Positions 25,070-35,469 of a DNA stretch of 64,000 nt are shown here, one piece after another (the first letter of the stretch is position 1; every line of letters starts with the position of its first letter). The notes under the pieces are model-generated. The model did not search any database. It saw only the letters and a program-made list of their open reading frames with translations, and had not been told where the DNA came from. Made by a program: the position numbers and the translations under genes. Source of the stretch: a virus; IMG/VR virus record IMGVR_UViG_3300047557_001530, positions 64,001-128,000 of that record; one strand, given 5' to 3'.

Positions 25070-25981
25070 ATGGAACGACAAAGAGCAACGACCCAACTAG
25101 CACATTATGACGATTTTTCTAAAGCATTGATTGAGTCGTCAGTCAGATATCTTGGCGAAGAAGGAATTCCTTCATTGCAAAAGAAAGGTAATGAAGATGA
25201 TTTCTCAAAGAAAGATCCTAAAGCAAAAGCAGCTCCTGCTGACCCAGCAATCAATATTGCTGCTGGCACTGGCACAAAACAATCTCATGGTGCAGAGATT
25301 GAATATACTACAGTTCGTGCCAAGAACGTACAGCGTGAAGAAGTAGAAAAGGAAGACGAGAGTAAAGCTGAAGAAGAAAAAGAAAAGAAGATGAGCAAGA
25401 CTGCCAAGGAAAAGCATGAGAAGGCAGAAGACAAGAAAGAAAAGGAAATGAAGGAAACCTACGAGTTAGAACTGGATGGCAATACTTACATCTTTGAGAA
25501 AAAGATGGATGGTAAGGATGACAATGGTTTCACGTCATGTTGGAAAGGATACAAGAAAGTTGGCACCAAAATGAAGGGTGGCAAAGAAGTTAATAATTGT
25601 GTTAAAGCAGGTTATGAACCAATTGGTGAATTAGTGCTTGATGAAAAAGCCCCCGCTGGGGCTAAGTTTGAAAGAATGGTTAAACATATTAAGAAGAGCT
25701 ATTCTAAAGATGGTTTAACTGATAAAGAAAAGGGTATTGCTTACGCTACTGCATGGAAGCAAAAGAATAAAGAACAGAAAGAAGAGTTTGATTTAACTGA
25801 AAAGAAACTTGATGCAGTAGGAAAGGAAGATAAAGATATTGATAATGATGGTGATCATGATAAGTCAGATAAGTATCTTTTAAATCGTCGTAAAACAGTA
25901 GGTAAAATTCTTGCTGCCAAGAAAAAAGTTAATGAAATGATTGCTTGGGAACAGGAGATTATCGCTGAAAAAAAGAACTGA
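25070..25981 (+). CDS. K/E-rich putative internal head protein; probable -1 frameshift extension to 26130
   Basis: Late promoter upstream; modules CWKGYKKVGTKMKGGKEVNNCVK and LDAVGKEDKDIDNDGD separated by hydrophobic-x-E sites. Confidence 0.7.
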   Translation: MERQRATTQLAHYDDFSKALIESSVRYLGEEGIPSLQKKGNEDDFSKKDPKAKAAPADPAINIAAGTGTKQSHGAEIEYTTVRAKNVQREEVEKEDESKAEEEKEKKMSKTAKEKHEKAEDKKEKEMKETYELELDGNTYIFEKKMDGKDDNGFTSCWKGYKKVGTKMKGGKEVNNCVKAGYEPIGELVLDEKAPAGAKFERMVKHIKKSYSKDGLTDKEKGIAYATAWKQKNKEQKEEFDLTEKKLDAVGKEDKDIDNDGDHDKSDKYLLNRRKTVGKILAAKKKVNEMIAWEQEIIAEKKN

Positions 25982-26140
25982 AGGCATCCACTGTAGAAGT
26001 GATGCCTGAAATTCCAAATAGTCCTGAAGACGGAGAAAGCTCTAAGAAGAATAAAAAGTACATCGGTAGAGCAGTAAACACACAGAAAAAAGATAAGCTA
26101 AATATTACGGGGTCCCCTCGATCAATTTAGGAGCAAAATT

Positions 26141-33632: not shown

Positions 33633-33971
33633 ATGAAAGTGCAATCAGCAAAAGCGAAAGGTCGCCGTCTTCAACAATGGGTTCGTGATAAACTTATCGA
33701 AATGCTTGATGTCCATCCTGAAGATATTGAAAGTAGATCTATGGGTGCTGGTGGGGAAGATTTAATTATGGCACGAGCTGCCAGACAAAAGTTTCCTCAC
33801 AGCATTGAATGTAAAAATGTAGAAAAGTTAAATGTTTGGGAAGCATATGAACAAGCCCAAGCAAACTCAGGTGATTATGAACCAGTCCTTGTCATGAAAA
33901 AGAATGGCAAAAAGCCATTGGTTGTAGTAGATGCCGAGTATTACATTCAACTTCACGGAGAAAAACAATGA
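33633..33971 (+). CDS. Holliday-junction-resolvase-like PD-(D/E)XK nuclease
   Basis: SAKAKGRRLQ, GEDL, SIECKN. Confidence 0.7.
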   Translation: MKVQSAKAKGRRLQQWVRDKLIEMLDVHPEDIESRSMGAGGEDLIMARAARQKFPHSIECKNVEKLNVWEAYEQAQANSGDYEPVLVMKKNGKKPLVVVDAEYYIQLHGEKQ

Positions 33972-34672
33972 AAATTACTTTACAAAATTTCTTTGAACAC
34001 TTTGATAAGAATAATCCGAATCATGTAAAAGCAGTACAAATGTTTCTACATGCCCTAGAAAAAGCAGCACCAGAAGAACTAGAAGATACTTCTGGCTGGG
34101 TCAAAACATTCAGAACACCTGTTCAAAAACAAGCAACAAATATTTTAGAAAACTTTCCTTGGTTTCCTCAGACAGACAACTACAGGGATGCACAAAGAAC
34201 TTGTAATAGTTCTGCCTGTGCTATGTGCTTAGAATATTTAAAGCCAGGTACACTCAAAGGACCTAAAGGTGATGATGCTTATGTTCAAAAAGTATTTGCT
34301 ATAGGTGATACCACTGACCACACGGTTCAAACTCGTGTGTTGATGTCTTATGGTATTAATTCTGCTTTTAGATATAACTTAACATTTGATGAACTCGATA
34401 AGCAACTTGCAGCCAAGCGTCCAGTTGTTATTGGAATCCTTCACAGGGGAACCCTAGCAGCCCCTACAGGAGGCCATATGGTTGTTGTGATTGGGAAGAC
34501 GCCCGCAGGCGATTACATCGTTCACGACCCTTATGGCAGCCTTAACGACGGTTATACAGGACCTGTTACAAATGGCAGGGGTGCGGTGTATAAGCGTAGC
34601 GATCTTGTGCGTAGATGGTGTCCTGCAGGAAATGATGGTTGGGGTAGAGTTTTTGATGCTGTAAAAAAGTAG
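33968..34672 (+). CDS. Putative endolysin, C39-like cysteine peptidase (short form)
   Basis: QTDN...RTCNSSACAM (Cys), GGHMVVVIG (His), VHDPYG (Asp); ends GTA AAA AAG TAG. Confidence 0.8.
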   Translation: MKITLQNFFEHFDKNNPNHVKAVQMFLHALEKAAPEELEDTSGWVKTFRTPVQKQATNILENFPWFPQTDNYRDAQRTCNSSACAMCLEYLKPGTLKGPKGDDAYVQKVFAIGDTTDHTVQTRVLMSYGINSAFRYNLTFDELDKQLAAKRPVVIGILHRGTLAAPTGGHMVVVIGKTPAGDYIVHDPYGSLNDGYTGPVTNGRGAVYKRSDLVRRWCPAGNDGWGRVFDAVKK

Positions 34673-35145
34673 AAAGTTCTATCCCTCAAGCTGGGATAGA
34701 ACTTATACGTGAGTTTGAAGGATGTCATTTACATGCCTATCCAGACCCAAAAACTGGCGGACCTCCTATTACAATTGGATGGGGAAGTACTAAAGATTTT
34801 AATGGTCAATCATTTAAAATGGGAAGGACAATAACACGAGAATATGCTGATAAACTTTTAGAATTTGATATTAAAAACAGATTCCTTCCTTATCTAGAAA
34901 AAATTCCTTATTGGGGAGAAATGAATGACAATCAACGGGGAGCACTTCTCAGCTTTGCTTATAATCTCGGTGCTGGCTTTTATGGCGGAGTTGGTTTTAA
35001 TACTATCTCTCGCAATTTACGTGAGAAAGATTGGTTATCAATCCCAAAAACATTAGAATTGTATCGTGATCCTGGCACTAACGTAGAAGCAGGATTACTG
35101 AGGAGAAGGAGAAGAGAAGGTTCTTTGTGGTTAGGAATAGGGTAA
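34669..35145 (+). CDS. GH24 (phage lysozyme) domain, reached by -1 frameshift from the peptidase
   Basis: -1 frame reads VESSIPQAGIELIREFEGCHLHAYPDPKTGGPPITIGWG...ALLSFAYNLG...GLLRRRRREG; catalytic E/D/T lie upstream of the first ATG (34819). Confidence 0.85.
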   Translation, partial: VESSIPQAGIELIREFEGCHLHAYPDPKTGGPPITIGWGSTKDFNGQSFKMGRTITREYADKLLEFDIKNRFLPYLEKIPYWGEMNDNQRGALLSFAYNLGAGFYGGVGFNTISRNLREKDWLSIPKTLELYRDPGTNVEAGLLRRRRREGSLWLGIG

Positions 35146-35469
35146 AGCAATACCTTCGCTTAACATTTTTTCATTTAATGTGACAGGATCGCCAACAAGA
35201 TAAAGAGTGCCAAGTATTCTTCCATACTTGTCCTCTTTTGTTGTTTCAATAATCCACTCTCCTTCACGGGAGAGTTCTTTTTTTAGCCATTCTTTTGCCG
35301 ATAGACCTTTTTCTTTCTCTGCTAGGTCTTTGGTTCTAGTTTCGGCAGCATTAATATCTTTTAGTCTTATTCTTTGAGAGAGTGTGATACCAAAACCTAA
35401 ATCAATATCAACATCAATAGTGTCGCCATCAATGATTCTCTTGATCTTCTTGATCTTGTATTGATACAT
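35131..35469 (-). CDS. Thermonuclease (SNase-like)
   Basis: RIIDGDTIDV, RIRLKDINAAE, DKYGRILG, LNEKMLSEGIA. Confidence 0.88.
   Translation of the reverse strand: MYQYKIKKIKRIIDGDTIDVDIDLGFGITLSQRIRLKDINAAETRTKDLAEKEKGLSAKEWLKKELSREGEWIIETTKEDKYGRILGTLYLVGDPVTLNEKMLSEGIALPYS

Follow-up and report, generated by a model that had tools for sequence, protein, structure and literature searches.

A conserved slippery heptamer and a compensating hairpin suggest a programmed -1 frameshift joining a peptidase to a start-less lysozyme in T4-like cyanophages

Introduction

The heptamer A_AAA_AAG is a well-described site of -1 ribosomal frameshifting. In E. coli dnaX, this heptamer, tRNA-Lys(UUU) and a stem-loop a few nt to its 3' side yield two products, tau and gamma, in a set ratio, and tRNA-Lys(UUU) is the tRNA that has been linked in E. 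coli to efficient slipping on A_AAA_AAG. In the IS3 family (IS911, IS3 and IS150), orfA and orfB are joined through A_AAA_AAG or A_AAA_G at the end of the upstream ORF, together with a 3' structure. In these elements the complete enzyme is the fusion, and the short protein has a separate function; in IS3, a 0-frame stop beside the slip site contributes to shifting.

As to lysis genes, a Lactococcus phage lysin is reportedly encoded in two overlapping genes. This lysin (Shearman et al. 1994) is included among the genes "known to contain a frameshift" in PMC10885494. Being split over two overlapping frames, it may be an earlier example of a recoded lysis gene, albeit in an unrelated phage and host. 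To our knowledge, its arrangement is not conserved throughout any clade. In a paper on a Lactobacillus phage, slippage in the lysin was only speculated upon, and a slippery site was not found there. Among phage genes, the tail assembly chaperones of dsDNA phages are produced by frameshifting, as in lambda G/GT (Xu, Hendrix and Duda 2004, cited in PMC5506516), and in PMC5506516 the frameshift of corynephage phi16 likewise concerns a tail chaperone. A full-text literature search returned no description of frameshifting in S-PM2 or in any cyanophage lysin. The signal considered below is of the classical dnaX/IS3 type; it seems not to have been reported before in a phage lysin.

In this study, we analysed a 64,000-nucleotide stretch of DNA (the window) from a metagenome-assembled virus record of 171 kb, estimated to be 88% complete. 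We propose that in this T4-like cyanophage a programmed -1 ribosomal frameshift makes a peptidase-lysozyme fusion, a reading in which the ribosomal slip itself is deduced from sequence and to which we assign a probability of about 80%.

Results

Organization of the peptidase-lysozyme junction

A sequence-only reading of the window had proposed that a C39-like peptidase is fused by a -1 frameshift to a GH24 lysozyme lacking a start codon of its own. When the junction was re-examined, the layout that it had described was found to be correct. As shown in Table 1, the peptidase ORF ends in GCT GTA AAA AAG TAG, and both the coordinates and the codon boundaries place A_AAA_AAG in a slip-competent phase. 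The -1 frame, closed upstream by the TGA as had been claimed, is open from position 34657 to a TAA at 35143-35145, and the perfect hairpin was present at its expected distance from the heptamer. Translation across the junction yields a transframe product of 392 aa, comprising the 234 peptidase residues and 158 codons of the -1 frame. The catalytic E/D/T segment of GH24 was also confirmed to precede any ATG, GTG or TTG of that frame. The earliest of these lies 34 codons past the catalytic Glu codon, and thus the 108-aa ORF that begins there lacks the E/D/T segment.

Table 1. Features of the peptidase-lysozyme junction in the window.
Feature	Position	Strand	Description	Basis
0-frame peptidase ORF	33968..34672	+	234 aa, Peptidase_C39_2, short product	
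TGA closing the -1 frame	34654..34656	+	3 codons 5' of the heptamer	Read from sequence
Slippery heptamer A_AAA_AAG	34663..34669	+	0-frame phase	Sequence
0-frame stop TAG	34670..34672	+	Abuts the heptamer	Sequence
Putative stimulatory hairpin	34674..34704	+	12 bp, 7-nt loop, 4-nt spacer	Fold and comparison
-1-frame coding part	34669..35145	+	158 codons; linker VESSIPQAG and complete GH24 muramidase	Translation, Pfam
Probable catalytic Glu codon of GH24	34717..34719	+	GAA, second E of EFEG	PDB alignment
Earliest -1-frame ATG	34819..34821	+	Start expected from a gene caller; 108-aa fragment without the catalytic segment	

The 234-aa ORF is a predicted papain-fold cysteine peptidase, as judged by profile match, conserved Cys/His/Asp candidates and modelled fold. 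It matched Pfam PF13529 (Peptidase_C39_2) at 41.8 bits (cut-off, 24), and the candidate catalytic residues Q68, C79, C84, H170 and D187 were invariant across 28 homologs. When its AF2 model (pLDDT 79) was searched with Foldseek, the matches were papain-clan enzymes (TM 0.45-0.66, probability 1.0), including Alr0975, C39 domains, staphopain and the pseudomurein endoisopeptidase PeiR.

The completeness of the GH24 domain was borne out by a whole-model match of the -1-frame product to Pfam Phage_lysozyme PF00959 (E 2e-21; 76.9 bits against a cut-off of 22.3; model positions 2-125 of 125), which was the sole PF00959 match of the 171-kb record. Solved GH24 lysozymes in the PDB aligned from residue 5-6, with the FEG motif included. 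Moreover, when 30 codons around the catalytic Glu were compared across 47 unique junctions, variability at the three codon positions was 0.096, 0.052 and 0.377, respectively. Since substitutions fall mainly at third positions, the start-less N-terminus of GH24 appears to be translated and under purifying selection. The expectation that gene callers would report a truncated lysozyme was also realized: a 72-aa "putative lysin" is annotated in S-PM2 and a 90-aa "lysin" in S-CAM7, both of them comparable shortened calls.

Conservation of the heptamer and the adjacent stop

AAAAAAG occurs 48 times in the window (37 expected). Given that it is so common there, recoding cannot be proven from one window, and the weight of the argument comes through conservation in relatives. 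A set of 105 related loci, from isolates and from IMG/VR, was therefore compared. As the sequence-only reading had anticipated, the heptamer, the stop, the -1 phase and a compensating hairpin recurred in 60 of the 105 loci, S-PM2 included; in these, GH24 lies in the -1 frame behind an in-phase A6G heptamer and has no overlapping start. Loci in this state make up the backbone of a clade in which the peptidases share only 67-92% identity with that of the window. The remaining arrangements included a T-run heptamer in place of A6G (3/105), a lysozyme with an overlapping ATGA or GTGA start (12/105, with the heptamer kept in 9 of the 12), in-frame fusions (10/105), peptidase-only loci (16/105) and one fusion with swapped domain order (1/105). 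As regards more distant cyanophage lysins, those of S-N03, S-B68, S-CBP3 and S-CBS1 are single ORFs, and the site in S-CBP4 is unannotated.

All 47 unique heptamer-bearing junctions were in phase, 46 with A_AAA_AAG and one with A_AAA_AAA. The codon 5' of the heptamer was GTA, GCA or GAA (V, A or E), its third base always being A, and the 0-frame stop followed at +0 in 38 junctions and at +3 in the other 9. In most relatives the -1 frame becomes open no more than a few codons before the heptamer and can thus be entered at the junction only. A6G was missing from the ORF ends of all 13 peptidase-only loci examined, and it was absent from the in-frame fusions L094-L102. By these alignments, the presence of the heptamer follows apparent need: it is kept in frameshift-type loci and lost in peptidase-only loci and most in-frame fusions.

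Two kinds of locus depart from the A6G state in an informative way. One IMG/VR contig, L084, has seven A residues (GTA AAA AAA GTA GAA) and retains the hairpin, and the joint of its in-frame fusion (..DVKK-VENST..) is the exact joint predicted for the transframe product. S-CAM7 and two IMG/VR relatives, nested in the in-frame clade, have a -1 arrangement with GT T_TTT_TTT and a nearby stop; the T8 run at the S-CAM7-type junction is accompanied by a hairpin of its own (GTAGAACC/GGTTCTAC).

The window belongs to a metagenome-assembled record, homopolymers are error-prone, and some relatives carry in-frame fusions, all of which would fit a one-base homopolymer deletion that split an ancestral fusion and left the lysozyme as a pseudogene or an artefact. 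The comparison makes such a broken gene or assembly error scarcely credible. Sixty loci, drawn from many independent samples, had the same configuration, and an extra A occurred in just 1 locus of the 68-row A6G clade. GH24, moreover, still matches its Pfam model over the full length and shows a strong bias of substitutions towards third positions. As the six-A configuration is shared by S-PM2 isolate records and by dozens of metagenome assemblies that are independent of one another, an assembly indel, which the sequence-only reading had left to be checked, is excluded.

The phage genome encodes tRNA-Lys(UUU) without tRNA-Lys(CUU). Upstream of the heptamer, inspection by eye found no evident dnaX-like Shine-Dalgarno element at ~10 nt, only a GGGGTAG stretch at ~18 nt, within conserved W-G-R codons. 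A Shine-Dalgarno stimulator is a feature of dnaX and IS911 but is not universal.

The downstream hairpin

The arms of the window hairpin, AAGTTCTATCCC (34674-34685) and GGGATAGAACTT (34693-34704), form 12 perfect pairs around the loop TCAAGCT (34686-34692), and the 3' arm overlies the GH24 codons G-I-E-L. When the segment 34655-34720 was folded, its MFE was -20.4 kcal/mol (z = -4.6), and 0 of 200 shuffles were equally stable; against a synonymous-codon null, the hairpin gave z = -3.35 (p = 0.003). Hairpins at the related junctions begin 0-7 nt past the heptamer, typically with 9-16 pairs and a median of -17.5 kcal/mol. The spacer is often just 2-4 nt. Bacterial -1 signals usually have 5-8 nt, and thus the lowest stem pairs would need to open.

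One consensus structure for all loci was dropped, since stem registers differ by lineage and loops span 3-16 nt and more; within-class alignments, together with synonymous-codon and chimera tests, were used in its place. At least seven classes of arm sequence were found, the arms being complementary in each lineage (for example, AAGTTCTATCCC/GGGATAGAACTT, GAATCAACATCACA/TGTGGTGTTGATTT, GCCAACTAAT/GTTAGTTGGC and AAGTGTTGCTTCC/GGGAGTAGCACTT). In the consensus fold of six same-length relatives, compensatory changes affected 4 of the 12 pairs, and compensatory pairs were present in two within-class alignments. In a slide control, 94% of cells were paired, compared with 35-49% when the partner was slid. 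Hairpin stability exceeded synonymous-codon nulls in 31 of the 47 junctions (p < 0.05), which, as for all comparative statistics here, are phylogenetically non-independent. There was no excess stability in five junctions with a 41-nt spacing and an ATGA or GTGA lysozyme start (L003, L017, L032, L059 and L073). When native 5' and 3' halves were compared with chimeras, the values were -17.2 and -11.3 kcal/mol, respectively (Mann-Whitney p = 2e-16, uncorrected for relatedness). A scan of 34550-34800 against Rfam gave no match to a frameshift element, only sub-threshold chance matches to ohsC (21 bits) and mir-1275 (16 bits); because families of frameshift elements are lineage-specific, this has no bearing on the mechanism.

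A stem beside a homopolymer run may also be viewed as chiefly an intrinsic terminator of the minus strand, serving convergent downstream genes and lying at the junction by coincidence. A scan does list the stem 34704-34674 followed by TCTACTTTTT, and minus-strand ORFs start just beyond the lysozyme stop. Even so, we consider this role a most remote prospect: the T run begins 5 nt past the stem, too far for intrinsic terminators, and the site lies ~430 nt into a plus-strand gene and not where the minus-strand ORF at 35131 ends. On the minus strand of S-CAM7 the run would read as A, so that no such terminator is possible there. The making of a start-less lysozyme under purifying selection would also be left unexplained.

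The main rival to ribosomal frameshifting is transcriptional slippage, in which polymerase would add one A within A6, or one U within the T8 run of S-CAM7, and the same proteins would result. The site is indeed a homopolymer run, and in L084 an A7 version is present at the DNA level. In S-CAM7 the T run has 8 bases, a length at which bacterial polymerases are known to slip; six A residues, in contrast, are short for efficient polymerase slippage. The A run is, moreover, almost constant (A6G in 46 of the 47 unique junctions, A7 in one). Slippage would leave unexplained the conserved, compensating hairpin, because the hairpin is still untranscribed while polymerase is on the run, and likewise the stop 0-3 nt past the run. 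We regard this explanation as improbable.

It is less probable still that the lysozyme is made separately, with no fusion, through initiation or termination-reinitiation at a non-canonical codon (e.g., an ATC or ATA Ile codon of the linker) after the TAG. Coupled translation is evidently workable in this family, given the 12 relatives with overlapping ATGA or GTGA stop-starts, and an I-P motif is often seen close to the beginning of the domain. However, in the window and in most frameshift-type loci the catalytic Glu has no ATG, GTG or TTG ahead of it, the few later GTG or TTG codons are not conserved in position, and the candidate Ile codons would be buried by the window hairpin. Separate synthesis would account neither for conservation of the heptamer down to the wobble base nor for its loss from peptidase-only and most fused forms, and the in-frame fusions indicate that a single chain is functional. 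Taken together, the comparative test matched what a programmed frameshift predicts, and these data support the proposal that a -1 frameshift joins the peptidase to the start-less GH24 domain.

Discussion

In the mechanism that we propose, most ribosomes would stop at the TAG at 34670 and release the 234-aa papain-fold cysteine peptidase. Some would slip instead while the 12-bp hairpin, 4 nt further on, detains them over A_AAA_AAG, possibly with further help from slow decoding of the abutting stop. The two tRNA-Lys would re-pair one base back (AAA AAG to AAA AAA), GTA would be read next, and translation would then run through the 9-residue linker into the complete GH24 muramidase, giving a 392-aa peptidase-muramidase of roughly 44 kDa. 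The efficiency of the slip and the need for both products are presumed here, and the two products would presumably constitute the phage endolysin at lysis.

A further suggestion, which we think doubtful, is that the frameshift is a selected, tunable device for dosing lysis, in which the free peptidase and the bifunctional enzyme would both be required and the RNA signal, together with the supply of phage tRNA-Lys(UUU), would determine their ratio. Lineages would then have retuned or replaced it, through A6G to U8 in S-CAM7, ATGA coupling, in-frame fusion and, possibly, a reversed, dnaX-like logic in ACG-2014f. If the dosing suggestion were true, this would be the first conserved recoding signal that controls a phage lysis enzyme.

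The frameshift would explain the truncated, catalytically dead lysozyme annotations in S-PM2, S-CAM7 and many uncultured T4-like cyanophages, and would provide a simple annotation rule for the clade. It would also bring a lysis enzyme into the range of phage products made by programmed frameshifting, so far tail chaperones, capsids and replication proteins, with the slip adding a second catalytic activity. At one junction, frameshifting on A6G, frameshifting on a U run, start-stop coupling, fusion in one frame and loss of a domain form a natural series, from which one may ask under what conditions selection prefers recoding to fusion. As an enzyme, the two-activity lysin may be of use against the cell walls of picocyanobacteria, and the 60-nt cassette could be used as a candidate frameshift signal in cyanobacteria, where recoding is little known.

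The cyanophage site resembles dnaX in its heptamer, in the stable stem-loop a few nt downstream and in the proposed making of two products from one gene. In dnaX, however, a ribosome that has shifted very soon reaches a stop and makes the short form, whereas the proposed slip in the cyanophage lysin would make the long form and add a catalytic domain. Also, dnaX has an upstream Shine-Dalgarno stimulator and no 0-frame stop abutting the heptamer; at the cyanophage site a stimulator was not evident by eye and the stop abuts. With the IS3 family the site shares a downstream ORF in the -1 frame without efficient initiation, a 3' structure and a stop near the slip site, but the gene encodes a predicted lysis enzyme instead of a transposase, the overlap is only a few codons, and the structure is a simple hairpin with its 3' arm on conserved codons of the catalytic domain. 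Two relatives of the lysin, ACG-2014f and S-CREM1, have single-chain fusions: gp211 of ACG-2014f (405 aa) has the same two catalytic domains in the same order with a similar linker, and the S-CREM1 "lysozyme" (393 aa) has them in reverse order. As each is encoded in one frame, only the fusion is expected from them. Like the tail chaperone frameshift, the proposed signal is phage-encoded and clade-wide, would yield a short and a C-terminally extended protein, and is routinely missed by annotators; the tail genes, however, encode structural or chaperone proteins and use varied slippery sequences, whereas the cyanophage frameshift would join two enzymes.

A peptidase ORF is followed by a lysozyme without its own start codon

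The end of the peptidase ORF, the phase of the heptamer, the hairpin and the limits of the -1 frame were read in the window exactly as the sequence-only reading had described them.

Features of the peptidase/lysozyme junction (window coordinates)
Feature	Position	Strand	Details
Peptidase ORF (0 frame)	33968-34672	+	234 aa; C-terminus ..DAVKK (GCT GTA AAA AAG), then TAG
-1 frame	34657 to TAA 35143-35145	+	By translation; closed upstream by TGA 34654-34656
Slippery heptamer A_AAA_AAG	34663-34669	+	X_XXY_YYZ phase by codon boundaries of the peptidase ORF
Hairpin	34674-34704	+	4 nt past the heptamer; AAGTTCTATCCC (34674-34685) / GGGATAGAACTT (34693-34704); perfect pairing; 7-nt loop

When the 0-frame protein was compared with Pfam profiles, it matched Peptidase_C39_2 (PF13529) at 41.8 bits (cut-off, 24). 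Its AlphaFold model (pLDDT 79) had papain-clan structural matches at TM 0.45-0.66, including Alr0975, C39 domains, staphopain and the pseudomurein endoisopeptidase PeiR, and residues Q68, C79, C84, H170 and D187 were invariant across 28 homologs. In the context of these fold matches and conserved residues, we infer a cell-wall role for the peptidase.

The -1 frame matched Phage_lysozyme/GH24 (PF00959) over the whole model (E 2e-21), the only such match in this metagenome-assembled virus record (171,368 bp, GC 36.8%, estimated 88% complete). Its earliest ATG/GTG/TTG was ATG 34819, and the 30 codons surrounding the catalytic Glu of the GH24 domain lay upstream of any start codon. Because solved GH24 lysozymes align to this frame from their residue 5-6, FEG motif included, the 108-aa ORF that gene callers were expected to report from ATG 34819 is indeed truncated and lacks the catalytic segment. 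Among 47 unique heptamer-bearing junctions, minor-allele fractions at positions 1, 2 and 3 of those 30 codons were 0.096, 0.052 and 0.377, respectively; such third-position-biased variation indicates that the start-less region is translated. Purifying selection on the GH24 part thus contradicts a broken gene which, together with an assembly error, we regard as the least probable of all explanations. Separate initiation of the lysozyme at a non-canonical codon is also quite improbable, given that it would account for neither the heptamer nor the hairpin.

The arrangement is conserved among related loci

AAAAAAG was frequent in the window (48 observed versus 37 expected), and the case therefore depends on relatives. 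We surveyed 105 related loci from phage-collection isolates and IMG/VR contigs; 80 IMG/VR contigs were found with the window's peptidase (identity 67-92%) and 25 contigs with the S-CAM7 peptidase, and classes were assigned by tblastn in both frames. A -1-frame GH24 with an in-phase A6G heptamer and no overlapping start was found in 60 loci, Synechococcus phage S-PM2 included; conservation in homologous loci was the check that the sequence-only reading had proposed. The other classes were a -1 frame with a T-run heptamer (3 loci), A6G with an overlapping ATGA/GTGA start (9), an own start with the heptamer lost (3), in-frame fusions (10), peptidase only (16), a reversed-order fusion (S-CREM1; 1) and loci cut by a contig end (2). 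The heptamer was absent from the marine in-frame fusions L094-L102 and from the ORF ends of those peptidase-only loci whose ends were inspected. The S-PM2 junction is GC A_AAA_AAG TAA and has its lysozyme in the -1 frame; the occurrence of this junction in three S-PM2 records means that assembly error is not viable as a general explanation.

The codon preceding AAA AAG in the 47 unique junctions was GTA (24), GCA (22) or GAA (1); the residue was thus variable, yet the third base was A in 47/47. The 0-frame stop lay at +0 in 38/47 and at +3 in 9/47, and the -1 frame mostly opened within a few codons 5' of the heptamer.

The downstream hairpin covaries

The 66-nt stretch with the window's hairpin folded at -20.4 kcal/mol (z = -4.6), and 0/200 shuffles folded as well. 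No upstream Shine-Dalgarno stimulator was evident by eye at the heptamer. In almost all frameshift-type junctions the stem began 0-7 nt past the heptamer (2-4 nt in many loci), typically with 9-16 pairs and a median energy of -17.5 kcal/mol. The 3' arm usually lay on, or immediately 5' of, the conserved G-[VI]-x-L-I codons, and the 5' arm, in a variable linker, was altered to match it, giving at least seven arm-sequence classes. In the covariation check that the earlier reading had proposed, compensatory changes were found at 4 of 12 predicted pairs in the window's class and 3 of 14 in a second class (15 sequences). In the window's class 94% of cells were paired, compared with 35-49% when the partner was slid as a control.

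When the protein was kept and synonymous codons were drawn, native junctions were more stable than these nulls (mean z = -1.9; 31/47 at p < 0.05; window junction, z = -3.35). No excess stability was seen in five junctions with 41-nt spacing and the lysozyme's own ATGA/GTGA start (z +1.5 to -1.3). Chimeras joining a 5' half to another 3' half of equal length folded at -11.3 versus -17.2 kcal/mol for native junctions (p = 2e-16, uncorrected for relatedness).

Some related loci (L056 versus L070, and similar pairs) had near-identical peptidases and different linker/hairpin classes (GCCAACTAAT versus GAATCGACGCCACA), a pattern suggestive of recombination in or close to the conserved junction, by which lysozyme modules would be shuffled.

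Variant junctions

In L084 (IMGVR_UViG_3300028557_000317; L084:2185-2260), one additional A (GTA AAA AAA GTA GAA) gave a 398-aa in-frame peptidase-GH24 fusion, ..DVKK-VENST.., with the hairpin intact and exactly the joint expected from a -1 slip. The extra A may have locked in the fusion naturally, or it may be an assembly error in the homopolymer. Across the 68 rows of the A6G clade in the peptidase tree no other locus was of this kind, suggesting that the split state is being maintained and is not giving way to fusion.

S-CAM7 and two IMG/VR relatives were nested within the in-frame clade. S-CAM7 (NC_031927; L085:1891-1945) had the -1 arrangement at a T8 run, GT T_TTT_TTT CCA CAG TAG, with the stop two codons later and a hairpin of its own (GTAGAACC/GGTTCTAC); the run also occurred in IMG/VR contigs L092 and L093, where a G-U pair preserves L093 pairing. 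Other than by recoding, it is difficult to account for a second classical slippery run at this junction, which also counts against the view that hairpin and run are chiefly a minus-strand terminator, a very remote prospect: on the minus strand the hairpin at 34674-34704 precedes TCTACTTTTT and was scored as terminator-like, which we judge incidental, although dual use may occur.

ACG-2014f (NC_026927; L004:2010-2050) is an in-frame fusion retaining GC A_AAA_AAG. Slipping by -1 at this heptamer would bring GTC TGA into frame and so terminate the protein, and 6 nt further on there is a GC-rich stem (GGAGGG/CCCTCC); the locus would be a candidate for reversed, dnaX-like logic in which slipping gives the peptidase-only form.

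Genome context

nrdB, a RusA-like gene, the peptidase and the lysozyme stand in the same order as in S-PM2 (Kyanoviridae). About 110 nt past the lysozyme stop, a plus-strand terminator-like hairpin (35256-35285; ACTCTCC TTCA CGGGAGAGT, then a T run) sits within the convergent minus-strand ORF 35131-35469 and likely ends the nrdB-to-lysin transcript. Another in-phase heptamer (GA A_AAA_AAG AAC TGA) ends the 303-aa ORF 25070-25981; 3' of it are a bulged stem (GGCATCCAC.../...GTGATGCC) and a -1 frame open for ~51 codons, reaching the next gene, making 25967-26130 a possible second frameshift site.

The 18 tRNA genes of the phage genome include tRNA-Lys(UUU) (G000:C1:138905-138980, outside the window) and no tRNA-Lys(CUU). 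In E. coli, efficient slipping at A_AAA_AAG is associated with tRNA-Lys(UUU); any influence of the phage's set on slipping is speculation.

Proposed mechanism and comparison with known systems

We consider a programmed -1 ribosomal frameshift the best reading of the junction (probability roughly 0.8). The ribosome would slip -1 on A_AAA_AAG and enter the GH24 frame, yielding a longer peptidase-lysozyme product. Two points weaken this reading: the spacer before the stem is short in many loci, and no Shine-Dalgarno stimulator is evident upstream. Transcriptional slippage would yield the same protein, and the T8 run of S-CAM7 is a likelier site for it than A6; because the conserved element is 3' of the run and adjoins the stop codon, the ribosomal slip is favoured, and we hold the transcriptional one to be unlikely. 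The predicted frameshift arrangement is conserved across the clade, which supports the original proposal of a frameshift-fused peptidase-lysozyme. The isolate records of S-PM2 and S-CAM7 annotate the lysozyme incorrectly; in S-CAM7 the GH24 part appears merely as a 90-aa 'lysin'.

Our literature search turned up no description of a frameshift of this kind in a cyanophage lysin, and none demonstrated in any endolysin. The signal is of the dnaX/IS3 type; the peptidase-lysozyme junction adds both a member and a gene class to a recoding mechanism that is well known. As in IS3 elements and lambda G/GT, the slip in the cyanophage lysin would give the longer product.
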